NCBI GenBank assembly: GCA_021648525.1
Contig: JAKISP010000010.1
Span: forward strand, 5,695 to 69,694
Direction: 5' to 3'
Source: Gammaproteobacteria bacterium
GTDB taxonomy: Bacteria; Pseudomonadota; Gammaproteobacteria; SZUA-140
Length of the DNA: 64,000 nt
Positions 25,570-44,884 of the stretch are shown here, piece by piece; within the stretch, counting starts at the first letter, position 1, and each line of letters starts with the position of its first letter. The position numbers and the translations under genes were made by a program. The notes under the pieces were generated by a model. It ran no database searches and was not told where the DNA came from. It saw only the letters and a list, made by a program, of their open reading frames with translations.

Positions 25570-25645
25570 GTTGTATATAAACAAACTGTTGTTTAACGTT
25601 AACCAACATTAAAGGGTTTAGCGACCCGAAATATCTATAGGGGAG
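25570..25645 (+). promoter_or_regulatory. conserved promoter/5' leader of OMP paralog 1 (shared with paralog 2 at 26835..26910)
   Basis: Both genes are preceded by about 75 nt with near-identical blocks. The blocks are tgtatataaac, ctgttgtt, aacattaa, gggttta and cgacc, followed by the RBS taggggaga. Confidence 0.4.
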
Positions 25646-25654
25646 AATTATAAA

Positions 25655-26650
25655 ATGAATAAAAAATTAATTGCTTTGGCAGTTGCAGGTGCATTTGCAA
25701 GTTATGGTTCTGTGGCAACAGCCGCGAGTGCTACCATAAGTGGTTTTGCAGATATCATCTATACTGCTGCTGATGATGCTGCAGGCCCAGCTGTGGGTGT
25801 AGCCGGCAAAAATACCTCGGAAGGTAAATTTGCTGCGGATGCTGAAATTGATGTGATTGCAACAACAGGTGCGGTAACAGCGCGTATTGATGTTGATTTG
25901 GATCTTACTGGTGTGGGTGATTCCGGTACGCTTGAGCAAGCCATGTTTGCATGGGATCTTGGTGCGGTTACCCTGATCGGTGGTGTGTTCAATAACCCAA
26001 TCGGCGCTGATGCAGAAGATGCACCAGACATGGATTTCACCACGCATAGTGTTGTTTACAGTGTTCTCGACAGTCAAACTCAGAGAGACGGTAATAACAT
26101 TACTGGTGTGGCGCTTGCTGGTGCTGTGGGCCCCGTTACCTTAACGGGTGCTTTCCTGAATGATATTGGCGGCGCTAATGAGGAGAATTCTCTTGCATTT
26201 GTTGCTAACTATTCGCCAATTTCAGATCTTGATCTTGAGCTGGGTTTTGTGACCCAGGACGATCAAGTGGTTGGAGCAGCGGCTACAACCGCCGGTGATG
26301 TAGCTAACTTCAATGTAACCTACGGCATTAGCGGTTTTGTTGTAGGCCTGGATTACTTGACTGCATCGAATGTTGTTGATAGTGCCTATACTATCTGGGG
26401 TGGTTATACCCACGGTGATTTCAACTTTAAACTACGTGCCGAAAGTGTTGGCTGGGAAGCGACTGGTATGGAAGATCACGATGCAATCACTTTCTATGCT
26501 TCATATGCAGCAAACGAAAACCTGAGCATCGCGCTGGAATATAAAGATGGTGATCAAGGTGCTACCACTGCGCCTGGTAATACCGCTAATGCCATTAGTG
26601 GTATTGCACAGGATGGTCTGGCTACACTGGAATTCATCGCAACGTTTTAA
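25655..26650 (+). CDS. secreted outer-membrane porin-like protein, paralog 1 (unknown family)
   Basis: It is 331 aa. It has a signal peptide (MNKKLIALAVAGAFASYGSVATA) and a Gly/Asp/Thr-rich beta-rich composition. It ends ...LEFIATF with a C-terminal Phe. Confidence 0.6.
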   Translation: MNKKLIALAVAGAFASYGSVATAASATISGFADIIYTAADDAAGPAVGVAGKNTSEGKFAADAEIDVIATTGAVTARIDVDLDLTGVGDSGTLEQAMFAWDLGAVTLIGGVFNNPIGADAEDAPDMDFTTHSVVYSVLDSQTQRDGNNITGVALAGAVGPVTLTGAFLNDIGGANEENSLAFVANYSPISDLDLELGFVTQDDQVVGAAATTAGDVANFNVTYGISGFVVGLDYLTASNVVDSAYTIWGGYTHGDFNFKLRAESVGWEATGMEDHDAITFYASYAANENLSIALEYKDGDQGATTAPGNTANAISGIAQDGLATLEFIATF

Positions 26651-26677
26651 TTGCGGCTGAAATTTAAAGTGGCTTAA

Positions 26678-26707
26678 AAAGCCGAGCCTGATGGCTCGGC
26701 TTTTTTA
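26678..26707. terminator. rho-independent terminator
   Basis: The hairpin is gccgagcc tgat ggctcggc and is followed by a T6 run. Confidence 0.6.
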
Positions 26708-26834
26708 TGCCTGAAAGAGATAAGATTGATTGGGAAAAACCTGCAAGTAAAGCGCGGCAATAATTACTGTGGTTATTTTACAACGGTAAACGATAAGTTT
26801 TTTAGTGGGAAATATTGTTTTTTTGTTCTAACCG

Positions 26835-26910
26835 CTGTATATAAACGATCTGTTGTTGAGTGTTGACTAACATTAACGGGTTTAACGACCTTGTGATTTT
26901 CTAGGGGAGA
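26835..26910 (+). promoter_or_regulatory. conserved promoter/5' leader of OMP paralog 2
   Basis: See 25570..25645. The same conserved blocks and RBS are present. Confidence 0.4.
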
Positions 26911-26920
26911 GGGTGTCATA

Positions 26921-27976
26921 ATGAATAAAAAGCTTATTGCTTTGGCAGTAGCGGGTGTGATTTCGGCCTATGGGACGGCTGCAAACGCAGTGGAAGTGAG
27001 TGGTTTTGCCAATATTAAATACACTATTACAAATGATAGTGCAGTTAAGAATGAGGGAACTGCAACCGAATATAACAGCAAAGAAGATAAATTTGCGGTA
27101 GATGGTGAAATTGATGTGATTTCTACAGTAGGCGCGGTCACGACGCGTGTTGATGTTGATCTTAACCTTACTGGTAATGGTGATTCTGGTACGCTTGAGC
27201 AAGCCATGTTTGCCTGGGATCTCGATGCGGTTACTTTGATTGGTGGTGTTTTTAATAACCCAATCGGCTATGAAGCTGAAGATGTGCCGGATATAATCTT
27301 TAATGTTCATGGTGCGGTTTATACTGCGTTGGACAGCCAGACTGAGCGAGATGGTGACAATGTCACTGGTTTGGCGGTTGTGGGCGCGCTTGGCCCTGTG
27401 ACACTGACAGGTGCTTTTTTAAATGATTTACAGGATGTTAACGAAGAAAACAGCATTGCATTTATTGCAAACTACTCGCCAATAGCGGGTCTTGATCTGG
27501 AGCTTGGTTTTGCTACGCAAGCGGGTAATGCTGGGCTTGGCGATACTGCTGGATTAAATACTTCCGTGGGTGATATAACCAACTTCAATGTGGCTTATAC
27601 CGGCGTGAAAAACCTGACGGTTGGTCTAGATTACCTTATGGGTGATGTGGTGCTGGATTCTGCTTATGATCTCTGGGCAGGGTACTATTTTGGTGGTGGT
27701 TTTTCTGCGAATGTGCGTCTCTCAGAGGTTGAATACAGCAATAGCGATGTCGCGACATTGAATGCTGGCCTGGGGGGGGCAGCGGCAGTGAGTAGTGCAC
27801 TGGAAGGTGTTGGCCTCCCTGCGGGCGATTCAGAAACAACTACGCTAAATCTGACGTATAAAGTTTCGAAAAACCTGAAGGCGGCGCTTGAATTTTCAAG
27901 TACAGATGTCACTTTGTTATCAAGCCCTACAACTAATAATGATTTAGTCACGCTGAAGCTGCTAGCAACATTCTAA
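26921..27976 (+). CDS. secreted outer-membrane porin-like protein, paralog 2
   Basis: It is 351 aa. It is about 55% identical to paralog 1 over the N-terminal 200 aa (GDSGTLEQAMFAWDL...LIGGVFNNPIG). It ends ...LKLLATF. Confidence 0.6.
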   Translation: MNKKLIALAVAGVISAYGTAANAVEVSGFANIKYTITNDSAVKNEGTATEYNSKEDKFAVDGEIDVISTVGAVTTRVDVDLNLTGNGDSGTLEQAMFAWDLDAVTLIGGVFNNPIGYEAEDVPDIIFNVHGAVYTALDSQTERDGDNVTGLAVVGALGPVTLTGAFLNDLQDVNEENSIAFIANYSPIAGLDLELGFATQAGNAGLGDTAGLNTSVGDITNFNVAYTGVKNLTVGLDYLMGDVVLDSAYDLWAGYYFGGGFSANVRLSEVEYSNSDVATLNAGLGGAAAVSSALEGVGLPAGDSETTTLNLTYKVSKNLKAALEFSSTDVTLLSSPTTNNDLVTLKLLATF

Positions 27977-28216: not shown

Positions 28217-29329
28217 GTGAATAAGAAAAAAATAGCGGTATTGGTGGCGACTGGCATGTTGGCGGCACCGCTGATAGTGCAGGCGGAGGATGTTGAGGTT
28301 TATGGTGATGTTCGCCTGTCGATAGATATGTCGCAGAATGAGCAAGACCCAGTGACTGGAGGAAAAGACGATAGTGCGCTGTCAGTGAACAGTAACACTT
28401 CCAAGCTCGGTTTTAAGGGGAGCGAGAAGCTGAGCGATAACCTCTCTGTTATCTGGCAGTATGAGACCGAGGTTGAACTCGACAATGGTGATCTGAGCGT
28501 CAAGGGGCGTGATACTTATGGTGGCCTGAAAGGGAGTTGGGGGTTGTTAAAGGCAGGAAAGTTGAGTAACCCAATGAAACAGTCTTCTAGCAAAATCGAT
28601 ATCTTTACTAATACACGTGCCGATCATAATATGATTGTTGGCTATGTTAATGGTGTTAACACCTTTGATAACCGTTTTGACAATACCATTTGGTACTCCA
28701 CGCCAAAATTTGGCGGGGTGAAGCTGGATCTGTCGTATACAACGGATAGTGCGGGCAGCAAAGAGGATGCGCTGCCTGGTAAGCTGATTTCTCCGCAAAA
28801 AAACGTGACCAGTTTTAGCCTGAACTATGACAAGGGGCCGCTCTATGTGGCAATCGCGACAGAGGCTCGGAATGACGCCAAACTTAAAGACAATGGGCAG
28901 TATGAAGATGTGGCCGCAACCAAATTAGTGGGACGCTGGGATTTTGGCCAGGGTACGACCGTGGGATTCATCTATGAAGATGCTGAAAATTCAGCGGGCG
29001 CAGAGACTTCTACAATGACCCTCGCCTCCGCATCAGGACAGGCGCGTACTGCGTTTTACCTGAATGCAGCTCATAAGATCGGTAACACGACGTTGAAAGC
29101 CGCCTACAGTCAGGCGGATGATCTTGATAACATGGCGGGTACGGGTGCTACCCACTATGCGCTAGGTGTATTTAAGTCGTATTCTAAAAATACAGAGCTC
29201 TACCTGCTTTACACGGCGACCAACAATGATGCTAATGCGAAATATGGCTTGAAAGACATGGCGGGTGTTGAGGGCAATACAATTTCTGCCCTGTCATTTG
29301 GCCTGAATAAGCGATTCAGTAGTAAATAA
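28217..29329 (+). CDS. Gram-negative general porin (Porin_4 / Neisseria-Burkholderia type)
   Basis: It has a GTG start after AAGAGGG. It has a signal peptide followed by AEDVEVYGDVRLSIDM...SKLGFKGSEKLSDNLSVIWQYE...YGGLKGSWGLLKAGKL, typical of 16-strand trimeric porins. It ends ...GLNKRFSSK. Confidence 0.7.
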   Translation: MNKKKIAVLVATGMLAAPLIVQAEDVEVYGDVRLSIDMSQNEQDPVTGGKDDSALSVNSNTSKLGFKGSEKLSDNLSVIWQYETEVELDNGDLSVKGRDTYGGLKGSWGLLKAGKLSNPMKQSSSKIDIFTNTRADHNMIVGYVNGVNTFDNRFDNTIWYSTPKFGGVKLDLSYTTDSAGSKEDALPGKLISPQKNVTSFSLNYDKGPLYVAIATEARNDAKLKDNGQYEDVAATKLVGRWDFGQGTTVGFIYEDAENSAGAETSTMTLASASGQARTAFYLNAAHKIGNTTLKAAYSQADDLDNMAGTGATHYALGVFKSYSKNTELYLLYTATNNDANAKYGLKDMAGVEGNTISALSFGLNKRFSSK

Positions 29330-29355
29330 CCGATACGCTGTTTATTGTCTAGTTG

Positions 29356-29386
29356 AGCGGGCACCTTTGGGTGCCCGTTTTTTTTG
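29356..29386. terminator. rho-independent terminator
   Basis: The hairpin is cgggcacc tttg ggtgcccg and is followed by a T8 run. Confidence 0.6.
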
Positions 29387-29519: not shown

Positions 29520-30359
29520 ATGACAAGACGTGGTGGGAGAGCTCGTTTAATCGGGCATTTGCTGGGGGGCGTTTTGGTGGGCATGTTATTGCCTGCTATG
29601 AGTGCTGTTGCCGGCGTCTACAACACCAAACACAATCTTGGCAGTAGCGGCCTGAATGCGGCCAGTAATTTTAGTGGTACAGAAGAGATCTGTGTCTTTT
29701 GCCATACCCCGCATGGTGGTGATGCGTCGGCGGCGGTACCCATCTGGAATCGTCAGCTGGATGCGGGCGGTTTTCAAACCTATGATCAGATGGGGACCAC
29801 CACGCTAGATGCGAATGTTGAGCCGATAGGCTCTGTCTCCATTGCCTGCCTCTCCTGTCATGATGGCTCACAGGCGATGGATGCAGTCATTAATGAGCCA
29901 GGTTCGCTGGCTGATAACCCCTCTTTTTCTGCGGGTGACTGGAGCGGCCAGGCGGCGGCAGTTCAGGGGCGAATTGGGCCGGTTGATGTGGTGACAAATT
30001 TAGGTAAGGATCTAACGAACGACCACCCTGTCGGGATTCAATATGCAGGTGGCGGCTATTCAGAGAGCTACCCGGAGGGGCGACCAAGAGTCGATATTGA
30101 CTTTAATCCGCCAACCTCAGAAGTGCTGAGTACGGGGCGGGTGTGGTGGGTAGATAGCCGTGAGCATCCCGAGTCTTCTTTTAGTAAACGAGATTTAAAG
30201 CTTTATTCTCGCGTAGGGACACGCGGTACCAATGTTGGTGAGCTGCAGCCTTATGTGGAATGTGCATCGTGTCATGATCCGCATGTGGACTACAATCCGA
30301 CCTTTTTAAGGATTGACCCCGCTGGAAGCGCGGTTTGCCTGACTTGTCACGCGAAGTAA
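29520..30359 (+). CDS. tetraheme c-type cytochrome with doubled-CXXCH domains (paired_CXXCH family)
   Basis: It has a GGGGGAG RBS and a signal peptide. It has 4 CXXCH motifs (CVFCHTPH, CLSCHDG, CASCHDPH, CLTCHAK). The CHDPH...FLR...CxxCH spacing matches the doubled-CXXCH motif. Confidence 0.8.
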   Translation: MTRRGGRARLIGHLLGGVLVGMLLPAMSAVAGVYNTKHNLGSSGLNAASNFSGTEEICVFCHTPHGGDASAAVPIWNRQLDAGGFQTYDQMGTTTLDANVEPIGSVSIACLSCHDGSQAMDAVINEPGSLADNPSFSAGDWSGQAAAVQGRIGPVDVVTNLGKDLTNDHPVGIQYAGGGYSESYPEGRPRVDIDFNPPTSEVLSTGRVWWVDSREHPESSFSKRDLKLYSRVGTRGTNVGELQPYVECASCHDPHVDYNPTFLRIDPAGSAVCLTCHAK

Positions 30360-31361
30360 GTGATGGTGATGAAGTTGACTGCGCTGTGGATGCTACTGGG
30401 TTTAATGGCTGTGCCAGCCCTGGCCGAGCAAGTGGTGCTTGAACAGCGCCAGTCGGCGCTTGCTGCGGATGTATTTGCGGTGGTGGACGGAAAGGTCATT
30501 ACACAGCAGACATTTGATACCTTTTTGCACGTGGGAAAACGACAGCGGTTTTACCATGGTGATATCCCTGAAGCGGAAGAGGCTGCATTTCGAAAGGAGG
30601 TGGCGCAGCGCTTGATTGATCAGGTGTTGATGCGCTCCGCGGTGAAAGAAAGAGGGGTAGTAGCAGAGCCAGAGCAGGTGAAGGTTCAGTTGGCGGCCAT
30701 TGAGGCGCGCTATGAGTCGCGGCCGCATTGGCGGGCACAGCGAGAAGGATTCCTTGCAGAGTTATTGCCGCAGGTGGAAGAACAGAGTCAGTTCGAGCAG
30801 CTTGAGACGCAGGTGCGGAACGTGGTTGAGGTGAGTGAAACGGCGGTGGTGGCCTATTATCAGGCCAATTCCGAACAATTTACGACGCCGGAGCGACTGC
30901 GTGTTTCGCTGATTTTGTTAGGTGTCGAACCCTGGGCGCAGGCAGCCCAGTGGCAGGCGGCAATGGATGAGGGTGAGCGCTTAATTAAGCGACTGCGACA
31001 GGGCGGAGATTTTGCAGAGATGGCTCGCTTGCATTCAAGTGATGGCTCAGGGCTTAAAGGCGGTGATTTAGGTTACGTTCACAAAGGAATGTTGGCGGAA
31101 GAGGCGCAGCAGGTGCTGGATAAAATGATGCCGGGGGAGGTGTCGTCTGCCATTCGTTTGCTGAAAGGTGTCGCGATATTCAGGGTTGATGAGCGGGTTT
31201 CACCGGTGTTGAATCTGTTTGAACGGGTTGCACCACGCGCACGCGATTTGTATGTGCGTGAGCAGAGCGAAAAGAACTGGCGTGAGTTTATGAGTGAGAT
31301 GCGCAGTAGTGCGGATGTACAGGTAAGAGATCCGTTGCTGTTACCAATTAGCGATGAGTAG
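30360..31361 (+). CDS. periplasmic PpiC-type peptidyl-prolyl cis-trans isomerase (parvulin; SurA/PpiD-like chaperone)
   Basis: It has a signal peptide and a parvulin domain (SLILLGVEPW...GGDFAEMARLHSSDGSGLKGGDLGYVHKGMLAEEAQ). Confidence 0.7.
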   Translation: MMVMKLTALWMLLGLMAVPALAEQVVLEQRQSALAADVFAVVDGKVITQQTFDTFLHVGKRQRFYHGDIPEAEEAAFRKEVAQRLIDQVLMRSAVKERGVVAEPEQVKVQLAAIEARYESRPHWRAQREGFLAELLPQVEEQSQFEQLETQVRNVVEVSETAVVAYYQANSEQFTTPERLRVSLILLGVEPWAQAAQWQAAMDEGERLIKRLRQGGDFAEMARLHSSDGSGLKGGDLGYVHKGMLAEEAQQVLDKMMPGEVSSAIRLLKGVAIFRVDERVSPVLNLFERVAPRARDLYVREQSEKNWREFMSEMRSSADVQVRDPLLLPISDE

Positions 31362-31422
31362 TAGGGGGTTGTTCTGATTATCATGCGGTCGTTGCAAGTC
31401 GTATTTGTGACGTTAGATCAAT

Positions 31423-33231
31423 GTGGGCTGGATGGCTAGGGAGATAGCATCCCGGCGTTTATACCTGTTAGCCTCGGTTGCGATGTTGTGCCCGCTCGCC
31501 GCGCCATTAGCCGCGCCTGTTGATCTGTCGGGTGATGTTGGGTATGCCTACCGTTTGATGAAAGGTGATAATAGTGAAACCGTGAGTAACCAGCTACGAG
31601 GTTCGATACGCGGCAGGTCTTACTTGGGGCAGCCGTGGATTGCGACTGTGGATGTCGGTTTGCGATTTACCGAGGATAGAGCCAATTACAGCCTCACTTC
31701 GAGTGCGCATGTTGATGGTAGTGATACTAAATTGGTGACCGGTGACCTGAGCCTGAATGTGATTCCGCAGAGCCGTTTTCCTATTTCAATCTCCTATCAG
31801 GCCAATGATAGCCGCGTTGATGCTACGCTGAATACCATCACCAGCCCACTCACGGCGGCGGGTAATCGTGAATTCAAGACCCGGCGTTTTTCGATTAGGC
31901 AGAATATTACGGCAGACAGCGCCAGCCGTTTTAAGTGGAACCTGGATTCCAATCAGTGGGATTCCAGTAATAGTGAAAAATACAGTGACTGGTTATTAGG
32001 TGGCAGTGCTGATTTTGGTTTTGATGACCACCGGTTACAGTTGCGAGGGAGTTATAAGTCTATTGACCGGGCCGCTTTAAGTCAGGAGACAACGAATACT
32101 ACGCTGAGTGGTGATCATTTTTATCATAGCCCGACGCGGGCGCTCAGAGTGGACTCTTCTGTGGATTACTACCAGTATCAAACAGAAGGGGTAGCGTCCG
32201 ATATTGTCTTTAGTAACGGTGAGCTTGATACGACCAGTTATCAGGCGTCGAGCTTTGTATTCTGGCGCCCCGTTGACCGTAAGCTGAGCGCGAGTGCAGG
32301 TGTGCGGGTGTTTAATCTGACCAGTGATGCTATTTCAACTAACACCGCAGAGACGACAATTAGTAATGAAACTGAGCTGCTGAGTCTGAATGCGAGTGCG
32401 GCTGGGTTGTATCAATATACAAAAAATGTCCGCTTTGATGGGAATGTGAACTTTTCCGTTAATGATAACGGTGTAGAAGAGAATAATGCGTACCTTGGGC
32501 GATTGGGCGCACTGTTACAGTCCGATATTCATGAAATTCCTTTGGGGATGATGTATCAGTGGCGTGCATCGGCTGCGGCACAGACACAGGGGATAGAAAG
32601 GAATAAGCAGTACCAGACATTGAGTGTTAATCTGGGGCACGATGCGAACCGTAGCTGGCTGAATGATGATAAAAGTTCTGCATTACGGTTTGGTTGGAGT
32701 CAGGCGGTTAATGCTTCGCTTGAAAGTGGTGATGAGGACGCGAACTCACAGCGGTTTGATCATTCGGTCAATGTCGGCTGGGATCGTTATGGTGATCGTG
32801 ACAGTACTTATTCTCAGCTTACTATCTCGGATGCGCGCACCCTGGGTGATCGTGAAAGTGATCAGCAGTTGGTGAATCTACAGCTCACTCGAACGCAAAA
32901 TATGACCCGACGTAGCACGTTAACGGGCAATATTACCGCGCAAAGTGTGCGCCAGAATTTTGCTGGTCAGGATGCGAGTGAGATATCAACAACCACGACT
33001 GGAGCGATAAATTATCAGCTTTCCAGCGTGTTTGGTATTCCTCGTTTTCGTTATGGGTTTGATGTTCGCGTGTCACGAGCATCTCAGGATTCGGGAGTTG
33101 ATCGTGCCGAATGGGAACACCGACTGGATTATAGTGTCGGTCTAGTAGATACTAGGGCCAGTTGGCGCCTGATTGATGCTGGGGAGCAGAATTACACTTT
33201 GGTGTATTTTCAGGTTACACGACGTTTTTGA
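31423..33231 (+). CDS. large outer-membrane beta-barrel protein (602 aa, no heme motifs), a candidate porin component of a porin-cytochrome complex
   Basis: It has a signal peptide (…AMLCPLAAPLAAP). It is rich in alternating polar/aromatic beta-strand segments. It has a C-terminal aromatic end (...YFQVTRRF). It has no CXXCH. Confidence 0.55.
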   Translation: MGWMAREIASRRLYLLASVAMLCPLAAPLAAPVDLSGDVGYAYRLMKGDNSETVSNQLRGSIRGRSYLGQPWIATVDVGLRFTEDRANYSLTSSAHVDGSDTKLVTGDLSLNVIPQSRFPISISYQANDSRVDATLNTITSPLTAAGNREFKTRRFSIRQNITADSASRFKWNLDSNQWDSSNSEKYSDWLLGGSADFGFDDHRLQLRGSYKSIDRAALSQETTNTTLSGDHFYHSPTRALRVDSSVDYYQYQTEGVASDIVFSNGELDTTSYQASSFVFWRPVDRKLSASAGVRVFNLTSDAISTNTAETTISNETELLSLNASAAGLYQYTKNVRFDGNVNFSVNDNGVEENNAYLGRLGALLQSDIHEIPLGMMYQWRASAAAQTQGIERNKQYQTLSVNLGHDANRSWLNDDKSSALRFGWSQAVNASLESGDEDANSQRFDHSVNVGWDRYGDRDSTYSQLTISDARTLGDRESDQQLVNLQLTRTQNMTRRSTLTGNITAQSVRQNFAGQDASEISTTTTGAINYQLSSVFGIPRFRYGFDVRVSRASQDSGVDRAEWEHRLDYSVGLVDTRASWRLIDAGEQNYTLVYFQVTRRF

Positions 33232-33284
33232 CAGGCGTTGTAGGCCTCATATAATAAGAGTAAATTACGAGGAGAGAGTTTGAT

Positions 33285-33722
33285 ATGTCATCTAAGATCA
33301 AGCGTAATGTGTTGAAATCGATGATCATAGGGGTATTAGCGTATATGGGGGCTCTGGGGGCCCCGCAGCCTGCGCAAGCAGAGTATGCTGATATCGTGAT
33401 CAATAACTATGCTGATGCAGCAGGAATGCGCCCTGCCGTTTTTCCGCATTGGTTCCACCGAATTCGTTTCCGTTGCAAGGTTTGTCATACAGACCTGGGT
33501 TTTGCGTTTAAAGCGGGTGGTAATAAAATCGATATGGCTAAAATTATCGATGGCAAGTTCTGCGGAGCCTGTCATAACGGTGAAATTTCATGGTCGGTAG
33601 AAAACTGTGCCATGTGCCATTCCGGGATACCGGGGCAACCAACCCATTTTCACGGCAGTACGGTGCAGCGTCTGATCGCCCCGGCGTATAAGCCACTTCA
33701 AGCCAACGACGCTAAGAAATAA
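33285..33722 (+). CDS. periplasmic triheme cytochrome c7/c3-type (PpcA-like)
   Basis: It is 145 aa with a signal peptide. Heme 1 is FPHWFHRIRFRCKVCH, as in c7 cytochromes, plus CGACHNG and CAMCHSG. Confidence 0.75.
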   Translation: MSSKIKRNVLKSMIIGVLAYMGALGAPQPAQAEYADIVINNYADAAGMRPAVFPHWFHRIRFRCKVCHTDLGFAFKAGGNKIDMAKIIDGKFCGACHNGEISWSVENCAMCHSGIPGQPTHFHGSTVQRLIAPAYKPLQANDAKK

Positions 33723-33736
33723 GAGGAAGGCAAGCA

Positions 33737-34408: not shown

Positions 34409-34542
34409 CCGACACATTAATCAGAGCTATAGCATATTCTAAGGATTGATAATTAACGCCGGACGAACTCTTCGCCCGGCGTTCCCTATAATGTGTTTCA
34501 GGCAAGATTAATTGTTCAGTTAATTTTAAGGAAGTTGAAACC

Positions 34543-35874: not shown

Positions 35875-35875
35875 C

Positions 35876-37746: not shown

Positions 37747-37760
37747 AAATAAACATAATC

Positions 37761-38837: not shown

Positions 38838-41509
38838 GAGGTCATTTTACAGGCACGTTATTGATCCTGTTTGCTGTTGTATCAATGGCAGAGTCAGCTT
38901 ATGCTGCACGCATCTCAGATATCGCGAACACAAAACATAACTTTTCGGCGACAGTTCCACCGAGTGAGACGTCTCGTACGGTTCAGGCAGTCTCTGAATC
39001 TCAAATTTGTGCGTTTTGCCATACACCGCATGGGGCGACTAACGAAGCGCGTACGCCACTTTGGAATCGCACGCTTTCGACCGCAACTTATGCACCCTAC
39101 AACTCAAGCTCGTTGGATGCAATAGATCTGGGGCAGCCAGAGGGAAAGTCTAAACTCTGTTTGTCATGCCATGACGGTACGCTGGCGATCGGATCTGTTA
39201 ATGTATTAAATCGGGTAGAACTCAAAAAAGAGGGACGTGACATTCCTTTTCAGGGGACACGCCCTGATGGCAGTATTCCAGATGGACATGGTGAGTCAAC
39301 TGGATTTACGCGCCGCATTGGTGTCGACTTAACCAATGATCACCCGATTTCATTTACTTTTGATAGTGCTCAGGCCGCGCGTGATGGTGAGCTCTATAAC
39401 CCAGAAGTTGAATTGCATATTAGAGAACGTTCGCCAGGAAGCGGCCCGCCTTTCCCGCAGTCACAACATACAGGTGTAGCGGGTTATTTACCGTTGGAAG
39501 ATGGCCAGGTGGAGTGTATCACCTGTCATGACCCGCATATTCGTTCAGATGATCCGAACGAAGGTAACATTAAATTCTTACGTGTTAACCGAATGCAACG
39601 CCACGCGGAGCCTGTTGACGGTCAGTTTAATGCGGACAACGATATTATCTGTATTTCTTGCCATGATAAAGAAGGATGGGTTGGGTCTGCGCATGCTAAT
39701 CGTCTCGCGGCAGATGAAACTTATCAACTGCCTGCTGGTAATCTACGCGAATTCCCGCGAGATACTCAGGTGTGGCAAGCGGCATGTTTGAATTGTCATG
39801 ACCCGCACACGGTTGAAGGTTCACGCCGGATTTTACGTGAGGGAACCGATGGGCCGACCAGGATTGATCCCGTGACCGGCGGTAAGTTTAAACAGGGCGG
39901 TAATCACGCAATTGAAGAAGTCTGTTTTGCCTGCCACTCACCCGATGGTGATGTGTTAGTTGGGCAGGGTAGTGTTGGTTTCCAGGTGCCGGATGTTAAG
40001 ACTGATTTTGTGACACCAGGCAACACCCATATGCCACTGCAGAGTGCAGATCAACGCGCTGGTCGTGAAGTGCATTCGATTGGTAGCGGCAGAGATGGTG
40101 TGGAAGGAAAAACGCGAGGCCAGGATTTTGTTGAATCCCCAGAGATGATGGGTAAGGGGAATTTGATGAATCGTCACGTAGAATGTACCGACTGCCATAA
40201 TCCTCATCGTGTCGCTAAAAATCGCATGTTCAATGCAAACAACGCGATTCCAGATGTAGAGGGTACGCATCCACATACACCCACTGATATTGCGGCTAAT
40301 GGTTTAACCATGCACACCAACCTTGCTTCAGGGGTGTTAAGGGGGATTACTGGCGTTGAGCCTGTGTATGGATCCACTGCTTTTGGTAGCGAGCCTGTGA
40401 GTTTTACCCTTAAACGTGGAGACCCCGGAACGGGTGGGAGTACTGAGGTTGGCGCCCCTTATGTCACGCGTGAATATCAAGTCTGTCTTAAGTGTCATTC
40501 AAACTATACTTACGATACACCGCCCCCTTTAGGTTTGCACGGTGGGAGTACCGCGCCGGGTACGAATGCGATGTTTGAATACACCAATCAGGCGATGGAG
40601 TATCAAGCGCCTCCTTCCCATATGGGCGAGGTGAGTTCATTTCCAGCACCGGGATGGGGGCCATTTGTTGGTGTCGATGGCGAGGGAAACAGCGTTGATT
40701 TTGAAAATAACAATCATCGCTCATGGCACCCTGTGATGGATAGAACTGGACGTACTGCGACAGAACGGCTTGCCGACCCTGATGTCTGGCGTTCACCGTT
40801 TAATATCCCTGGCGCATTAGGGGAGCAAACGATGTACTGCACCGACTGCCACGGCAATAACACCGCGAGTGATACCGTTATTCCAAATGGTGGCGTTAAT
40901 GGTGAAGTCTGGGGGCCTCATGGCTCGCAAAATAATTTTCTATTAAAAGGACCCTGGGATGATAATACCGGGCGGCAGCAGCCTGAGGGGCTGTGTTTCA
41001 GGTGTCACGAATTTGATCAATATGGCCGAGACTCAGGAATCGCGACCTCCTTAACCCCGCCCGTGCTTGCTAGTGGATTTAAAGTAATCAATAACGTGGC
41101 TTTTGGTTGTATTAATTTTAAGCTGGTTAATCTGCACATTGGACATAATAAATCCATTGCCCCGGGCGTGACTAATTTCCGTTGCACGCTTTGTCATATT
41201 GCGGTGCCTCATGGTTGGAAAAATAAAGTATTCCTCGCGAATCTAAATGATGTTGGGCTAGAGGCGAGCCTCGCGCCTGGCACGCAGGTGAGATATTTAG
41301 GGTTTGCGGGTAATACGAATAAAGCGAATGGAACCGGACGCTACTACGCTGGCCCGTACTACAATGGTGCCGCATTAAAAGTCAATACCTTTTCACGCAG
41401 TGGCGCCTGGCTTGAGACAGGTTGTGGCTCATCTGGAAACCCTGGTAATGGTGAACTTGGGTTTGGCTGGATGACGAGTCTTGACGAAACATGCGCATCA
41501 TTACCATAA
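38834..41509 (+). CDS. large multiheme c-type cytochrome (891 aa, 11 CXXCH), doubled-CXXCH family, candidate outer-membrane or extracellular cytochrome
   Basis: Its start overlaps the NHL gene stop (ATGA). It has a signal peptide. There are 11 CXXCH motifs (CAFCHTPH, CLSCHDG, CITCHDPH, CISCHDK, CLNCHDPH, CFACHSPD, CTDCHNPH, CLKCHSN, CTDCHGNN, CFRCHEF, CTLCHIA). The N-terminal module TKHNFS...ICAFCHTPHG...PLWNR parallels the tetraheme protein at 29520. Confidence 0.8.
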   Translation: MRGHFTGTLLILFAVVSMAESAYAARISDIANTKHNFSATVPPSETSRTVQAVSESQICAFCHTPHGATNEARTPLWNRTLSTATYAPYNSSSLDAIDLGQPEGKSKLCLSCHDGTLAIGSVNVLNRVELKKEGRDIPFQGTRPDGSIPDGHGESTGFTRRIGVDLTNDHPISFTFDSAQAARDGELYNPEVELHIRERSPGSGPPFPQSQHTGVAGYLPLEDGQVECITCHDPHIRSDDPNEGNIKFLRVNRMQRHAEPVDGQFNADNDIICISCHDKEGWVGSAHANRLAADETYQLPAGNLREFPRDTQVWQAACLNCHDPHTVEGSRRILREGTDGPTRIDPVTGGKFKQGGNHAIEEVCFACHSPDGDVLVGQGSVGFQVPDVKTDFVTPGNTHMPLQSADQRAGREVHSIGSGRDGVEGKTRGQDFVESPEMMGKGNLMNRHVECTDCHNPHRVAKNRMFNANNAIPDVEGTHPHTPTDIAANGLTMHTNLASGVLRGITGVEPVYGSTAFGSEPVSFTLKRGDPGTGGSTEVGAPYVTREYQVCLKCHSNYTYDTPPPLGLHGGSTAPGTNAMFEYTNQAMEYQAPPSHMGEVSSFPAPGWGPFVGVDGEGNSVDFENNNHRSWHPVMDRTGRTATERLADPDVWRSPFNIPGALGEQTMYCTDCHGNNTASDTVIPNGGVNGEVWGPHGSQNNFLLKGPWDDNTGRQQPEGLCFRCHEFDQYGRDSGIATSLTPPVLASGFKVINNVAFGCINFKLVNLHIGHNKSIAPGVTNFRCTLCHIAVPHGWKNKVFLANLNDVGLEASLAPGTQVRYLGFAGNTNKANGTGRYYAGPYYNGAALKVNTFSRSGAWLETGCGSSGNPGNGELGFGWMTSLDETCASLP

Positions 41510-42543
41510 GCGGAGTGCTGCGCCGTCTGGCATCAACAAAGCTAACATTATTATGGATGTTACTGTTAGCCGTTGGTGCAGCGCTGAGTTACGATAATCC
41601 TGAGGATACTTCGATCTGGGTCTTGATCGTACCGATGTCACTGCTGGCGCTTAACCTGATCGCTGCAATTATCAGTAACCCCCGCATCAATCGACGTGGC
41701 GGTCTGCTAGTATTCCATCTGGGCTTGTTAAGTATTGTTGTGCTGGCTGCGATTGGTCGCCTGACCCATATGGATGGACGTGTTGAAATTATCTCTGGCG
41801 CTGAGTTCTCACCTGAAATAGTCACCGATATACATAGCGGTCCGCTGCATAGCGGTGCACTGGCTGATGTGAATTTTGTACAGGGGCCATTTACAGTTGA
41901 GTATCGTCCTCAGATGATGCGAGGCCTTACCTATAGTCAGGTTGCCCTGCCTGATAATAAAGGTGGGTGGCGAGAAGCAGTGGTGGGTGATGACCGCCCG
42001 CTCCTGGTTGAGGGATACCGTTTCTATACCACTTTCAATAAAGGGTTCGCGCCAATATTAAGCTGGACGAGTCATGATGGACGGGTGGCTGAAACTGGCG
42101 CTGTTCATATGCCCTCATACCCCTTGTTTGATTTTAAACAGTCAAATAGCTGGACACCTCAGGGAGGCGATGAAATTAAATTCTGGTTGCAGTTAGAAAC
42201 CGGCCTTACCACTGAAGAGGCGTGGGTGCTCGATGGACGACGTGCGACAGGTACGCTGGTAGTTAATGTATCGGGTGAACGTACGGAATTATTACCGGGA
42301 GAGAGTGTCAAAATGGCGGGTGGTACATTACGTTACGAGCAGCTTACGACCTGGATGGGCTACAAATTATTTTATGACCCCACATTACAGTGGATGTTTC
42401 TCGCCGCATTTATCACGATTGCTGGGCTTGCCGCCCATTTTTGGCAAAAACTGGCGGCAGAACCACTGGGACTGGATGATGCGCTACGACATGAAAAACA
42501 GCATGCAAAAGGATCGGTGCCTGCATCGCGTTCGGCAGCGTAG
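41491..42543 (+). CDS. System II cytochrome c biogenesis protein ResB/Ccs1 (CcsB) family
   Basis: It has an N-terminal TM pair, a large periplasmic domain and a C-terminal TM (WMGYKLFYDPTLQWMFLAAFITIAGL). It lies immediately upstream of a CcsA/ResC gene. It is shorter (350 aa) than canonical ResB. Confidence 0.6.
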   Translation: MRIITISGVLRRLASTKLTLLWMLLLAVGAALSYDNPEDTSIWVLIVPMSLLALNLIAAIISNPRINRRGGLLVFHLGLLSIVVLAAIGRLTHMDGRVEIISGAEFSPEIVTDIHSGPLHSGALADVNFVQGPFTVEYRPQMMRGLTYSQVALPDNKGGWREAVVGDDRPLLVEGYRFYTTFNKGFAPILSWTSHDGRVAETGAVHMPSYPLFDFKQSNSWTPQGGDEIKFWLQLETGLTTEEAWVLDGRRATGTLVVNVSGERTELLPGESVKMAGGTLRYEQLTTWMGYKLFYDPTLQWMFLAAFITIAGLAAHFWQKLAAEPLGLDDALRHEKQHAKGSVPASRSAA

Positions 42544-42564
42544 CGGTGTAAGGAGATTGGAACG

Positions 42565-43425
42565 ATGACAGAATTACCATGGTTATACGCAGGCATCGCA
42601 GCCTATGCATTTGCAGCTATCGCAGCGCTGGTGGGTGTGGCACGATTAGGCACAACGATGGCGACTGTTGGCGGGGTCAGTAGCGTCAGTGAAAGCCAGC
42701 GCAATAATGAAAGACTGGTGCTTTTATTGATGACCACGAGTGTGATTTTACTGACGATCACGCTAGCTGATCGCTGGCTGCGCATTGGCCATGGCCCGTT
42801 TGTAAACCTGTTTGAGTTATTAATCAGCCAGCTCTTTAGCCTTGGTCTGGTTTATACCATCGCTTACTGGCGCATCCCTGTATTGCGTACCACATCCGTG
42901 GTGGTGTTGCCGCTGATGGGTGTGTTAGCTGTGTGGGTCATGGTGCTTGAACCGTCAGATAGTGTATTCCCGCCCACTTATCACAACCCATGGCTATGGG
43001 CACATGTTGGCTTTGGTAAATTTTTCCTCGCCTTTTGTTTAATCGGCACCGGGTTAGCTGGCGTGATCTTACTACGTAGTTATGGCTTTTTTAAAAACCT
43101 GTTTCGTCATCTGCCTGATAATGTCATCCTCGATAAACTGGCGTGGCGATTTATGTTGCTTGCGCTGGTGTTTGATAGCCTGATGTTATGTGCCGGTGCG
43201 GTTTGGGCACAGGATGCATGGGGACGCTACTGGGCATGGGATGCGCTGGAAACATCATCATTCCTTAACTGGCTGCTATTAGGTGCCTCAATACATGCGC
43301 GCACAACCTATAATGTTCCTATCCGGTTAGGTGCAGTTCTGATTATCAGTGTTCTTGTTTTTGCATTTGTCACCTACTTTGGCACCCCTTTCTATAGCGA
43401 AGCGGCACACAAAGGGGTGATATAG
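42565..43425 (+). CDS. cytochrome c-type biogenesis protein CcsA/ResC (heme-handling WWD-domain protein)
   Basis: It is 286 aa with multiple TM helices. It has the Trp-rich WWD motif WGRYWAWDALETSSFLNWLLL and conserved His residues. Confidence 0.8.
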   Translation: MTELPWLYAGIAAYAFAAIAALVGVARLGTTMATVGGVSSVSESQRNNERLVLLLMTTSVILLTITLADRWLRIGHGPFVNLFELLISQLFSLGLVYTIAYWRIPVLRTTSVVVLPLMGVLAVWVMVLEPSDSVFPPTYHNPWLWAHVGFGKFFLAFCLIGTGLAGVILLRSYGFFKNLFRHLPDNVILDKLAWRFMLLALVFDSLMLCAGAVWAQDAWGRYWAWDALETSSFLNWLLLGASIHARTTYNVPIRLGAVLIISVLVFAFVTYFGTPFYSEAAHKGVI

Positions 43426-43433
43426 CGGAGTAG

Positions 43434-44219
43434 ATGGTGGACGTGGATAAGAAAAAAAATAGTAATGAAACGATAGTTACAACCCTTTCACTGTTAATGG
43501 TTGGAATTGTCAGTGCTGCGATTGTGATGTTGATGATGCAGGACGACCCAGGCAAGACGGGGGCATCAATCACACTGGAAGCACTACAGGGATCATCGGT
43601 CGCTCAACTACCCCCGCCCCCCGTAAATAACGCAATGTCTTCGGTCGAAATAGCAATACCCGCACTACAAACGCCAGTGCCGCAAGTGGCCGCACCTCAA
43701 ACAGAAGAAGCGAAACGCATGGCTGAAATAACCACGCGTTTTGAACAGGCGGTGGTGATGCTACATGCCAGACAATATGAACATGCCGCAACCGCACTGC
43801 ATCGAGTGATGACATTGGCGCCCAGAATGCCTGAAGTCTATGTGAATATGGGGTATGCAAAGTTAGGCCAGGCATTACCCAATGAAGCGCTGGTCTTTTT
43901 TGAAACTGCGACACAGCTAAAACCAGAGCAGGCGAATGCCTACTGGGGAATGGCTGTTGCGCTGGAAAATAGTGGTGACCTTGCGGGTGCTTTAGGTGCG
44001 ATGCGTACTTTCCTGCACCTCTCATCCGGTGATGACAACTTCGCACGACGCGCACGCTCAGCACTGTGGGAGTGGGAAGAGGCACTCGCTCGCGGGCCGT
44101 TGCCGGAAGAAGAAAAAGAATTTCTTGAACGTGGGGCGTTGCAGTGGGAATCTCGCAATACGCCGCGTGATGATGCCGATAGTGGAGAGCAAACACTACA
44201 GGTGCAACCGCTTCAATAA
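43434..44219 (+). CDS. membrane-anchored TPR-repeat protein (CcmI/NrfG-like apocytochrome chaperone candidate)
   Basis: It has an N-terminal TM helix, then a Pro-rich linker. It has TPR-like repeats (YEHAATALHRVMTLAP, EVYVNMGYAKLGQ, ANAYWGMAVALENSGDLAGA). Confidence 0.55.
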   Translation: MVDVDKKKNSNETIVTTLSLLMVGIVSAAIVMLMMQDDPGKTGASITLEALQGSSVAQLPPPPVNNAMSSVEIAIPALQTPVPQVAAPQTEEAKRMAEITTRFEQAVVMLHARQYEHAATALHRVMTLAPRMPEVYVNMGYAKLGQALPNEALVFFETATQLKPEQANAYWGMAVALENSGDLAGALGAMRTFLHLSSGDDNFARRARSALWEWEEALARGPLPEEEKEFLERGALQWESRNTPRDDADSGEQTLQVQPLQ

Positions 44220-44233
44220 TAGAGTACTACTGA

Positions 44234-44884
44234 ATGAAACACCTGACGACAATATTATTAACGCTTATGTTTGTAGGCTTTGCTGCTCAGGCAACCGCTG
44301 CACCGTTGCAGCCGTCCTTTCAAAAGGATCGGCACTATAAAGAAATTAATGGCGCACAATCGACTTACCAGGGTGAGAAGGTCGAAGTGCTGGAGCTGTT
44401 ATGGTACGGTTGTCAAACCTGTTATGTCATCCAGGAGGGCCTTGAAAATTGGCTGGCAGGCACGGGTAAAGTAATTAATTACCGTCGTATGCCTGCAGTC
44501 GTACACGATAATATGATGCTGCTAGCGCGAGCCTTTTATGCGGCTGAAGTGTTAGGGATCATGAGTAAAATACATAAACCGCTATTTTCTGCGATTCATG
44601 AATCGCGTCGCCAGCTGATAACAGAAGCGGCCGTAGCCGAATTTTTTGCTGAGCAAGGCGTTGCAGAAAAAGACTTTACACGCGCGTTGAATAGCGCATA
44701 CGTCAATGGAAAAATTCGACGTTCACGGATGATGAGTCAACGCTATGGGATCCAGGGAGCGCCATCGATTATCGTTGATAGTCGGTATCTGGTTGATCCT
44801 TCCCTGGTGCGTAGTCCAGAAGAATTTATTGATGTGGTTGATTTTCTGGTGAATAAAGTCAGGATGACTGTAAGAGAAAAGTGA
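44234..44884 (+). CDS. DsbA-family periplasmic thiol:disulfide oxidoreductase (CQTC active site)
   Basis: It has a signal peptide. Its thioredoxin-fold active site is LWYGCQTCY. It has a DsbA-like helical insertion and the C-terminal cis-Pro region GAPSIIVD. Confidence 0.65.
   Translation: MKHLTTILLTLMFVGFAAQATAAPLQPSFQKDRHYKEINGAQSTYQGEKVEVLELLWYGCQTCYVIQEGLENWLAGTGKVINYRRMPAVVHDNMMLLARAFYAAEVLGIMSKIHKPLFSAIHESRRQLITEAAVAEFFAEQGVAEKDFTRALNSAYVNGKIRRSRMMSQRYGIQGAPSIIVDSRYLVDPSLVRSPEEFIDVVDFLVNKVRMTVREK

Follow-up and report, generated by a model that had tools for sequence, protein, structure and literature searches.

What is the ~19-kb block of cytochrome, porin and heme-attachment genes at 25570-44884 of the window (the whole 64,000-nt stretch analysed), and in which direction might it move electrons? 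The host, a gammaproteobacterial MAG from a hydrothermal vent, is kin to the Tenderiales and SZUA-140 lineages. A sequence-only reading had described an electron-transfer system matching no known operon, possibly acquired as an island at a tRNA gene. All of the listed open reading frames were present on the + strand, as follows:

tRNA-Gln (CTG), 25297..25370, +, found by ARAGORN (Rfam tRNA 60.9 bits); neighbour, outside the module
por1, 25655..26650, +, secreted protein, 331 aa, C-terminus ...ATF; outside the conserved module
por2, 26921..27976, +, 351 aa, tandem paralogue of por1; outside the conserved module
por3, 28217..29329, +, general porin of Porin_4/PorB type (Porin_4 E 8.7e-36, PorB E 1.5e-26)
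uetA, 29520..30359, +, secreted tetraheme cytochrome, 279 aa, OmcE family, 4 CXXCH (Paired_CXXCH_1 E 2.5e-12)
uetB, 30360..31361, +, periplasmic SurA-like parvulin PPIase/chaperone (Rotamase E 3.5e-14, SurA_N_3 E 9e-8)
uetC, 31423..33231, +, 602-aa predicted outer-membrane beta-barrel, 28 strands, no heme motif, no plug domain
sigma-70 consensus TTGACA-16-TATAAT, 33228..33255, +, perfect (12/12), in the 53-bp uetC-uetD spacer
uetD, 33285..33722, +, periplasmic triheme cytochrome c7, 145 aa, 3 CXXCH (Cytochrome_C7 E 1.4e-14)
uetE, 33737..34408, +, triheme c7 after a ~120-aa N-terminal extension, 223 aa, 3 CXXCH (Cytochrome_C7 E 1.9e-11)
uetF, 34543..35874, +, secreted, 443 aa, N-terminal cupredoxin-like and C-terminal helical domains
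uetG, 35876..36526, +, triheme c7 with N-terminal extension, 216 aa, uetE paralogue, 3 CXXCH (Cytochrome_C7 E 1.9e-11)
uetH, 36487..37746, +, NHL/beta-propeller lipoprotein, lipobox LIGGC, acidic Pro/Glu-rich C-terminal tail
uetI, 37761..38837, +, six-bladed NHL propeller, lipobox-like IFSGC (NHL E 3.9e-26)
uetJ, 38834..41509, +, secreted undecaheme cytochrome, 891 aa, 11 CXXCH (Paired_CXXCH_1 E 1.3e-26)
ccsB (ResB-like), 41491..42543, +, System II cytochrome c biogenesis, short form, 350 aa (ResB E 4e-12)
ccsA, 42565..43425, +, System II heme-handling subunit (Cytochrom_C_asm E 1.5e-21)
TPR protein ('nrfG' of the uet nomenclature), 43434..44219, +, TPR families, one N-terminal transmembrane segment
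DsbA-family thiol-disulfide oxidoreductase, 44234..44884, +, CQTC motif (DSBA E 1.5e-12)

Identity and composition of the cluster

Comparison of gene order and domain content with the published definition showed that 29520-44219 corresponds, gene for gene and in the same order, to uetABCDEFGHIJ-ccsBA-nrfG, a cluster that Eddie et al. (2022) named in 'Ca. Tenderia electrophaga' and that is also reported from Gallionella and Leptothrix. A second named cluster, occA-S of 'Ca. Dechloromonas occultata', is by description very similar to it. By these measures the block contains a bona fide copy of an already described module, contrary to the view that it resembles no known operon. The functional class proposed earlier (extracellular electron transfer or metal oxidation by an outer-membrane barrel, c7 shuttles in the periplasm and a large outer cytochrome) agrees with the literature, in which uet is predicted to be a route for electrons across the outer membrane. 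We found no genetics or biochemistry on any Uet protein in the literature, and a 2026 paper still terms UetJ a 'predicted' porin-cytochrome cluster.

The gene neighbourhood proved to be conserved. Upstream sequence of 9.5 kb or more was available for 54 loci, of which 32 carried all ten uet genes and 46 carried eight or more; ccsB and ccsA followed uet in 47 of 64 loci, the TPR gene was colinear in 43/64, and colinear uetB orthologues occurred in 45 loci. A 'Ca. Tenderia sp.' genome (L005) has colinear orthologues with identities of 67% (UetA), 79% (UetD) and 54% (UetJ). UetJ has more than 6700 relatives, and a UetJ relative is present in at least 580 species genomes. L001, L002 and L004 were the only loci in which a DsbA gene came after that for the TPR protein; by this distribution it is a lineage-specific addition of the closest relatives.

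Most of the individual gene assignments made earlier held, including the tetraheme and 11-heme cytochromes, the parvulin, the three c7 trihemes and each member of the ResB/CcsA, TPR and DsbA-family set. All five cytochromes carry signal peptides; their CXXCH motifs number 24 (4+3+3+3+11), not ~27 as first counted. In Tenderia, the trihemes are among the organism's most highly expressed genes, and on cathodes both they and the undecaheme show high expression (PMC5371394). Both propeller lipoproteins were likewise borne out: UetH, which likely starts at ATG 36487 (the mechanical ORF opens at TTG 36478), matched NHL weakly (E 5.5e-4) and a Geobacter NHL lipoprotein at E 5.8e-13.

The cupredoxin assignment of UetF stood in part, since it draws on an invariant ligand motif, a weak pseudoazurin match and a published prediction, while a Pfam cupredoxin match was not found. 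The motif (H62, C108-x2-H111-x2-M114) was invariant in 10/10 orthologues carrying the domain, its C, H and M aligned with those of pseudoazurin 3tu6 (E 0.04), and a cupredoxin domain has been predicted in the Tenderia orthologue (Eddie et al., 2022). A single-sequence AF2 model reached a pLDDT of 33. Among the orthologues compared, the C-terminal helical domain was the part conserved across all lineages and the cupredoxin domain was restricted to this gamma lineage.

Upstream boundary, transcription and origin

Comparison of loci placed the start of the conserved module at por3/uetA and not at 25570. All three upstream genes had been called porins. This was confirmed for por3, whose start is likely GTG 28217, preceded by a Shine-Dalgarno-like sequence (mechanical ORF from 28076); the gene lies upstream of uetA in L001, L002, L005 and L083 and is a conserved uetA neighbour in Tenderiales-like genomes. 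For por1 and por2, which are 51% identical, no match was found in Pfam or NCBIfam, nor in PDB sequences, and por1 showed no significant similarity to por3. The label 'porin' is plausible for both, and por1 may be an outer-membrane barrel.

A terminator scan revealed terminator-like hairpins after tRNA-Gln (25378-25397), por1 and por3, with a strong terminator at 29355-29380 between por3 and uetA. The sigma-70 site ahead of uetD, whose -10 element is retained in L001, L002 and L005, is probably an internal promoter for uetD-E-F-G. Since hairpins and promoter consensus interrupt it, the block, although correctly described as same-strand, is not one transcription unit.

The proposal that an undescribed system was recently acquired as an island at tRNA-Gln draws on the position of the block directly 3' of the tRNA gene, which ARAGORN and Rfam confirmed, on the patchy distribution of the cluster over Gamma-, Beta- and Alphaproteobacteria, Magnetococcales and Nitrospinota, and on the different upstream context in L083, a close relative in which no tRNA-Gln adjoins the cluster, por1 is absent upstream of it, and only the Porin_4 gene and uet are shared with the window. 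The published naming of uet, and of the very similar occ, refutes the 'undescribed' part. Against the remainder, GC content was 0.486 in the region and 0.484 in the flanks, the tetranucleotide correlation of region with flanks (0.95) exceeded that between flanks (0.91), a repeat search found no direct repeat of the tRNA-Gln 3' end, the ORFs scanned included no integrase, and the tRNA-proximal por1 and por2 lie outside the conserved module. Island acquisition at tRNA-Gln is thus not supported, and we consider the proposal as a whole extremely unlikely. Since the patchiness extends across several classes and phyla, an older horizontal transfer of the cluster is likely.

Relationship to the Geobacter omcE locus

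To judge from its alignments, UetA is homologous to the OmcE filament subunit from end to end. It matched the solved OmcE structures over its full length (PDB 9YUQ, E 3.7e-27; 7TFS, E 9.3e-26; both verified as filament subunits), and its profile matched G. sulfurreducens OmcE at E 8.5e-46. The four CXXCH motifs and four distal histidines are invariant in UetA, OmcE and the UetJ N-terminus, and UetA retains OmcE's C-terminal CxxCH-x-K end. Solved members of this family are extracellular filaments; given ~30% identity to OmcE, we infer that UetA probably polymerises, although an insertion of ~45 residues relative to OmcE could alter the subunit interface. UetJ opens with an OmcE-like tetraheme module that takes up its first ~280 residues (E 2e-18 for residues 14-241 aligned with 7TFS; profile E 3e-25). 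UetI matched a 361-aa NHL protein of G. sulfurreducens over its full length (E 1e-43; profile E 2e-83), and this omcE-adjacent propeller lipoprotein is its homologue.

The Geobacter omcE locus, like uet, contains a c7 triheme, ResB, CcsA, paired-CXXCH multihemes and a large protein without a Pfam family. Similarity was weak for UetE and a PpcA-like c7 (E 5e-5), and was also found for ccsB (hhalign E 7e-5) and CcsA (E 4e-17). Since the PPIase, cupredoxin and undecaheme of uet have no counterpart there, the two loci have parts in common but encode different machines; glycosylation genes follow Geobacter omcE, whereas uet has none of that kind. The resemblance to Geobacter porin-cytochrome systems noted earlier is real, but through the omcE nanowire locus and not through Pcc/Ext conduits. 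The kinships of UetA, of the UetJ module and of UetI to OmcE and its neighbouring lipoprotein are new here, as is the barrel model of UetC described next.

Structure prediction agreed with the earlier description of UetC (100% identical to MCF6323560.1) as a heme-less barrel, the AF2 model having 28 long strands and a mean pLDDT of 84.3. Its best PDB match, and thus the nearest structural likeness of the model, was MtrB (6r2q_B, TMq 0.51). No Pfam model covers the family, which comprises 855 representative clusters, and sequence homology to the 752-aa protein adjoining Geobacter omcE was not detected. UetC and UetH are 84% and 79% identical to their L083 counterparts, compared with 96-98% for the cytochromes; this faster evolution would fit surface exposure.

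A candidate electron conduit and its alternatives

We favour, at a probability of about 60%, the interpretation that the uet module works as an OmcE-type electron conduit of which UetA is the extracellular part, with inward flow most likely. The published model (Eddie et al., 2022) is instead a discrete complex of the MtrCAB type, without a polymer, in which UetA or UetJ would sit inside UetC and the other on the surface. The MtrB-like barrel model, the UetA insertion, the single copies of uetA and uetJ and the lack of OmcE-type glycosylation genes are all consistent with it. A tetraheme chain is short, however, to span a 28-strand barrel; UetA has lost none of the OmcE heme ligands and has the C-terminal motif too; and conservation of the OmcE-associated NHL lipoprotein suggests a shared assembly route. 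We therefore regard a discrete complex as possible but rather unlikely. Confinement to the periplasm, which would make UetC an ordinary channel for solutes and give the cytochromes a soluble substrate, would suit c7 cytochromes and cupredoxins, which are periplasmic carriers, and NHL propellers, which can be enzymes, localisation being only predicted. Yet a plug-less barrel far above solute-porin size, strictly syntenic with cytochromes, argues against it, as do the filaments formed by solved members of the UetA family and the divergence of UetC and UetH, and we consider it very unlikely.

Evidence on direction conflicts across organisms, with cathode oxidation in one and Mn(III) reduction in another, and RuBisCO, a terminal oxidase or any other lifestyle-fixing gene was not found within the window. 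Outward flow would make uet a terminal reductase pathway acting on Mn(III)/Fe(III), whether extracellular or chelated, in line with the proposal for OccP of 'Ca. Dechloromonas occultata' and with OmcE in Geobacter. This reading is in keeping with the colinear clusters of several Rhodocyclaceae genomes and of L041, a Dechloromonas MAG, with the link of OmcE to Fe(III)/Mn(IV) reduction (PMC9473688) and with the reversibility of multiheme chains. It seems unlikely to us here, because the nearest relatives are Tenderiales/SZUA-140-like lineages predicted to be autotrophic electron-uptake organisms, the cupredoxin domain confined to this gamma lineage is typical of high-potential oxidative chains, and the likeness of occ to uet is one of description.

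In the OmcE-type conduit that we favour, Sec would export the five cytochromes and the dedicated System II pair CcsBA would supply them with heme, aided by the TPR protein and DsbA, while UetB and the propeller lipoproteins UetH and UetI would aid their delivery and assembly at UetC, a barrel predicted to be wide enough for a cytochrome. The extracellular part would be built from UetA, probably by head-to-tail stacking as in OmcE. UetJ, with an OmcE-type module and seven more hemes, could plausibly dock on UetA through the shared interface and carry the heme chain through or onto the barrel, and UetD, UetE, UetG and the blue-copper-like UetF would carry electrons across the periplasm. The host would set the direction; in a vent, autotroph-like lineage, flow would most likely be inward, with Fe(II), minerals or another solid donor feeding the respiratory chain.

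Gene content of the cluster and its match to uet

All of the ORFs named in the sequence-only reading of this DNA are present on the + strand between 25.6 and 44.9 kb, and most of the gene assignments there are backed by both Pfam and NCBIfam, as listed here.

Features of the cluster and of the genes directly upstream
25297-25370: tRNA-Gln
25655-26650, + strand: por1, secreted protein
26921-27976, + strand: por2, secreted protein
28217-29329, + strand: por3, Porin_4 porin; 28217 (GTG) is the probable real start
29520-44219, + strand: uetA to uetJ, ccsB, ccsA, and the TPR gene, comprising:
uetA: tetraheme Paired_CXXCH protein (Pfam/NCBIfam)
uetB: SurA-like parvulin, a PPIase (Pfam/NCBIfam)
uetC: predicted beta-barrel
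uetD, uetE, uetG: three Cytochrome_C7 proteins (Pfam/NCBIfam)
uetF (34543-35874): cupredoxin-like protein
uetH, uetI: NHL propellers, one match strong and the other weak
uetJ: 891 aa, 11 CXXCH motifs
ccsB, ccsA, TPR gene (41491-44219): ResB-like, CcsA-like, and TPR proteins (ResB, Cytochrom_C_asm, and TPR matches), then a gene for a DsbA-family protein

The heme motifs of the cytochromes number 4, 3, 3, 3, and 11, giving a CXXCH total of 24 rather than the ~27 first counted, and no CXXCH motif occurs in UetC or in the products of por1-3. As called mechanically, uetH shares its first 49 nt (36478-36526) with the end of uetG; its start is more likely the ATG at 36487, which precedes a lipoprotein signal (...LLIGGC); the uetH gene call in a close relative (locus L083) begins much later and would delete the lipobox.

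The cluster had been taken for an undescribed operon; however, its gene order is that of the named uet cluster, defined in Tenderia by Eddie et al. (bioRxiv 10.1101/2022.05.06.490989; elsewhere cited as mSphere 2022). The legend to their Figure 2 lists, in order, UetA (tetraheme), UetB (PPIase), UetC (beta-barrel), UetD and UetE (c7 trihemes), UetF (cupredoxin), UetG (c7 triheme), UetH and UetI (NHL), UetJ (undecaheme), CcsA, CcsB, and the TPR protein NrfG. The same ten uet genes as in 'Ca. Tenderia electrophaga' (Tenderiales; Eddie et al. 2017, 2022) lie in the same order at 29520-44219 of the window, the System II genes ccsA/ccsB and a TPR gene come next in both, and a 28-strand barrel and an 11-heme UetJ are likewise common to the two. 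Orthology to Tenderia is further indicated by a 'Ca. Tenderia sp.' MAG (L005), in which all 13 genes are colinear at 34-79% identity (UetA 67%, UetD 79%, UetJ 54%). Judged by gene order and homology, the window cluster (GC ~49%) is a further copy of an already named cluster whose function is predicted, and the extracellular electron-transfer or metal-oxidation role guessed in the sequence-only reading agrees with the published prediction for uet. In Tenderia, the batABD adhesion genes lie downstream of uet, whereas the window has a SelO-like gene there, preceded by the DsbA-family gene. Since bat genes are also missing 3' of the cluster in the Tenderia sp. MAG, batABD looks like an accessory rather than a core feature of uet. 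The sole VWA protein of the window (614 aa; 4396-6240, minus strand) is its one Bat-like element and lies away from the cluster.

Later papers describe the cluster from Gallionella (PMC10734462) and from Leptothrix group 2 (PMC13386937), whose strains are reported to carry UetJ; the second paper, of 2026, still calls the cluster 'predicted'. Our literature search found no genetics of uet, and its expression is documented by transcript and protein abundance only, and for Tenderia only (PMC5371394). A 19-gene cluster, occA-S, was described in 'Ca. Dechloromonas occultata' (2020) and is reported to be widespread in Betaproteobacteria. By its published description it resembles uet, with a 922-aa extracellular undecaheme cytochrome (OccP), 6-NHL-repeat proteins, a PPIase, and many c-type cytochromes; however, it has 19 genes and is a proposed Mn(III) reductase, i.e., electrons would flow in the direction opposite to that proposed for uet. 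Colinear uet-type clusters are present in three Dechloromonas/Rhodocyclaceae genomes, and from these relatives and the published description, occ and uet are very probably clusters of one kind.

Distribution, boundaries, and flanks

UetJ-like proteins have >6700 relatives (best, 89% identity), and at least 580 genomes encode one in a scan of one genome per species. We fetched 80 loci and used the 54 with at least 9.5 kb of upstream sequence for uet gene counts. Results showed that all ten uet genes were present in 32 of the 54 and at least eight, colinear, in 46; ccsB and ccsA came next in 47 of 64 loci, with the ccsBA/TPR arrangement in 43-47 of 64. Carriers include the SZUA-140 lineage, Thiodiazotropha, Arenicellales, many Burkholderiales and Rhodocyclaceae, Alphaproteobacteria, Magnetococcales, and Nitrospinota, as well as a cultured strain, Sphaerotilus mobilis DSM 10617, with uetB-J and ccsBA within the fetched flank. 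A distribution far wider than Tenderiales is new here, and older transfers of the cluster are implied by this phylogenetic spread. At five loci, a uetJ-like gene stands alone, with no other uet gene within 10 kb upstream (genomes include Aromatoleum tolulyticum ATCC 51758 and Polaromonas, Azospirillum, and Thiohalomonadales MAGs); therefore, the undecaheme cytochrome occurs in other contexts too.

A gammaproteobacterial MAG encodes a protein (MCF6323560.1) that is 100% identical to UetC of the window, and the nearest relatives of UetC come from hydrothermal-vent metagenomes. Locus L083 is closely related to the window (UetA 98% and UetJ 91% identity). Across this pair, UetA, UetD, UetE, and UetG are 96-98% identical, while UetC (84%), UetH (79%), and por3 (76%) have diverged further; such faster change would be in keeping with exposure of the barrel, the porin, and one propeller at the cell surface.

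Upstream of uetA, terminator-like hairpins follow tRNA-Gln, por1, and por3, the strongest being that of por3 (29355-29380). Locus L083 has por3 and uet but lacks por1, por2, tRNA-Gln, and rpsI, and carries a UvrD-like helicase gene upstream instead. Of the three genes first read as porins, only por3 has a family match (Porin_4); searches of Pfam, NCBIfam, and the PDB gave nothing for por1 or por2, and neither resembles por3. These two tandem, secreted proteins are 51% identical, end in ...ATF, and may constitute an undescribed outer-membrane protein family. Within the cluster, a perfect sigma-70 consensus (TTGACA-16-TATAAT) is found at 33228-33255 in the 53-bp uetC-uetD spacer, and its -10 element is kept in two other fetched loci (L001 and L002) and in the Tenderia MAG. 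The Tenderia trihemes show very high expression and apparent co-transcription with the gene between them (PMC5371394), and the predicted promoter could explain such high expression of the triheme genes.

The position of the cluster after tRNA-Gln had been read as compatible with an island. We found no evidence for a recent one: GC is 0.486 in the cluster region and 0.484 in the flanks (tetranucleotide r, 0.95), no repeat of the tRNA-Gln 3' end was found, and no integrase is encoded among the scanned ORFs of the window. An Rfam scan gave nothing apart from the tRNA. The flanks are of housekeeping character: trpE, trpD, crp, coq7, rplM, and rpsI lie on the left, and on the right, sensor kinases and a cus-type efflux system are encoded in addition to the SelO-like gene. 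A TraF_2/PorV-like outer-membrane protein is encoded at 18335-19657 (E 1e-45). Directly after the DsbA gene, the 635-aa product of 45018-46925 is SelO/YdiU-like but divergent (E 1e-5 to Pfam SelO; 31 bits in NCBIfam vs. a cut-off of 431), and 47515-49842, on the opposite strand, encodes a PAS sensor histidine kinase. At 57068-62179, TolC-like and CusB-like efflux genes adjoin a two-component system of the copper/silver type, made up of a CusS-like kinase and a response regulator; these cus-type genes may bear on a host that makes a putative copper protein and lives at metal-rich vents.

The modeled UetC barrel, UetF, and the homology to the OmcE nanowire system

An AF2 model of UetC built from a 36-sequence alignment (mean pLDDT 84.3) is a plug-less barrel with 28 long strands, in agreement with the 28 strands predicted for Tenderia UetC (bioRxiv 10.1101/2022.05.06.490989). 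The family is large: a cut-off of E≤1e-3 gives 855 representative clusters, and one of E≤1e-30 gives 547. It is covered by no Pfam or NCBIfam model, and some members are extended N-terminally, up to 1037 aa. The best PDB TM-score of the model, 0.51, was to MtrB of the Mtr complex, while 22-strand TonB-dependent receptors scored 0.2-0.36. This nearness to MtrB (TMq 0.51) is at the level of fold only, there being no MtrB-family sequence match, and MtrB is reported to have 26 strands vs. the 28 of UetC (bioRxiv 10.1101/2022.05.06.490989). MtrCAB, MtoAB, and PioAB share with uet the logic of a large plug-less barrel, multiheme cytochromes, and a periplasmic relay; however, the Uet cytochromes are of the paired-CXXCH/OmcE families, and an MtrA/DmsE-family decaheme is absent (TIGR03508 scores of 29-38 bits vs. 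a cut-off of 192). Cyc2, like the uet proposal, provides an outer-membrane route for oxidizing extracellular Fe(II) in neutrophilic chemolithotrophs, but there a monoheme domain and a small barrel are fused in one polypeptide, whereas the Uet hemes are on separate proteins. We rejected assignments of the MtrCAB/MtoAB/PioAB, Cyc2, and FoxEYZ types, as there is neither an MtrA-family decaheme nor a fused heme-porin.

UetF is modular. Its N-domain carries an invariant H...C-x2-H-x2-M motif and gave a weak pseudoazurin match (E 0.04) and no Pfam cupredoxin match; AF2 from the single sequence gave a pLDDT of 33. The cupredoxin-like N-domain is confined to gammaproteobacterial (Tenderiales-like) copies, beta- and alphaproteobacterial copies consisting of the helical C-domain alone. 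In several gammaproteobacterial orthologues, the signal sequence is of the lipoprotein type (lipobox) and a low-complexity stretch of roughly 60-120 residues forms a linker; the window copy lacks the long linker and starts with a plain signal peptide.

A link to the OmcE nanowire came from UetA. Its full length matches 9YUQ (E 4e-27) and 7TFS (E 9e-26) in a PDB sequence search, these being the Desulfuromonas soudanensis OmcE bundle (bioRxiv 10.1101/2025.10.22.684050) and the Geobacter sulfurreducens OmcE filament (PMC12954529), respectively, and its profile matches OmcE with an E of 8.5e-46. The first ~240 residues of UetJ match both structures as well. Across UetA orthologues, OmcE homologues, and UetJ N-termini, four CXXCH motifs and four distal His (TKH, TPH, NDHP, DPH) are invariant, as are an FLR motif and a C-terminal CxxCH-x-K; the tetraheme subunit of the Geobacter/Desulfuromonas OmcE locus thus has the same heme-ligand pattern as UetA. 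UetI matches the 361-aa NHL lipoprotein of Geobacter over its full length (E 1e-43; profile E 2e-83), UetH matches it at E 6e-13, the window's CcsA matches Geobacter CcsA at E 4e-17, and UetE matches Geobacter c7 at E 5e-5. From these alignments, UetA and UetI are demonstrably homologous to parts of the OmcE nanowire system, which is new here. The OmcE preprint, which reports OmcE homologues in Pseudomonadota (bioRxiv 10.1101/2025.10.22.684050), makes no mention of Tenderia or Uet, the Uet preprint (bioRxiv 10.1101/2022.05.06.490989) makes none of OmcE, and our literature search found no paper joining the two.

In G. sulfurreducens, the omcE locus runs c7 triheme, ResB, CcsA, 9-heme and 8-heme paired-CXXCH cytochromes, NHL lipoprotein, and OmcE, followed by a 752-aa protein with no Pfam match and then glycosyltransferases. 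Within the fetched locus (L081, 3437-13121), genes for a PpcA-like 91-aa c7 and for ResB/CcsA come immediately before those for the two multihemes, the NHL lipoprotein, and OmcE. The grouping of c7, System II, and OmcE is therefore common to Geobacter and uet, although gene order differs, and each locus also encodes paired-CXXCH multihemes as well as, near the subunit gene, a large outer-membrane-type protein that matches no Pfam family. According to the OmcE preprint (bioRxiv 10.1101/2025.10.22.684050), every OmcE cluster has genes for the subunit and a large beta-barrel along with two beta-propeller lipoproteins and two multihemes; the modeled 28-strand barrel of UetC, encoded two genes past uetA, likewise lies near the subunit gene. 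However, no homology between UetC and the Geobacter 752-aa protein was detected by phmmer, by two family HMMs (40 and ~148 sequences), or by hhalign (probability 0.1-0.2%). Where uet has an undecaheme that includes an OmcE module, the Geobacter locus has 8- and 9-heme proteins. Counterparts of the PPIase, the cupredoxin-like protein, and the undecaheme are absent from that locus, and glycosyltransferases follow omcE. Filament formation has been shown for the Geobacter and Desulfuromonas proteins only. Since no homology of UetC to the 752-aa protein was detected, these Geobacter counterparts are missing, and UetA has an insertion of ~45 residues relative to OmcE, polymerization of UetA is something that we infer.

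Candidate mechanisms and their meaning

The best-supported reading is that uet encodes a trans-outer-membrane heme conduit. Maturation of the cytochromes would fall to a dedicated System II module (CcsBA, TPR, and DsbA), and their assembly at the UetC barrel to UetB and the propeller lipoproteins. UetA, an OmcE-family cytochrome, would form the outer element, the c7 trihemes and UetF would act as the periplasmic relay, and UetJ is a plausible adaptor since it starts with the same OmcE-type module as UetA. More specifically, Uet may be a proteobacterial counterpart of the OmcE nanowire run in reverse, in which an extracellular tetraheme filament of UetA, with UetJ, by way of its fused OmcE-type N-terminal module, as membrane-proximal adaptor through the 28-strand UetC barrel, would harvest electrons at a distance from solid Fe(II) minerals or cathodes for chemolithoautotrophs respiring oxygen or nitrate; we give this a probability of roughly one in four.

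A discrete, MtrCAB-like complex that forms no polymer is possible, if doubtful: the UetC model is structurally nearest to MtrB and the UetA insertion is consistent with it, while the identical heme ligands of UetA and OmcE speak against it. The direction of electron flow is not given by the window itself. Electron uptake is favored by the lineage and by the gammaproteobacterial-specific cupredoxin-like domain; however, the same parts can serve reduction, as the occ data and OmcE itself show, and an outward reductase is a tentative alternative. A module confined to the periplasm would retain the c7 trihemes and UetF in their proposed place, but is improbable alongside the modeled barrel and the OmcE-like UetA. 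Still less probable is a novel island at the tRNA, which has the adjacency of tRNA-Gln for it and the uniform composition and the match to uet against it. Our preferred reading of uet remains the heme conduit.

Papers on uet, occ, and omcE appear to treat related machinery under three names. Few candidates are available for how neutrophilic chemolithoautotrophs might take up electrons from solids, and Uet is one of them. Because UetA and one propeller are homologous to the structurally solved OmcE system, the arrangement of filament, adaptor, and barrel becomes a concrete, testable hypothesis, and the presence of uet in cultured strains makes the cluster more testable still. If the nanowire reading is true, cytochrome nanowires would not be special to anaerobic metal reducers but widespread, in hundreds of species, and would extend to iron oxidizers, sulfur-oxidizing symbionts, and Nitrospinota.
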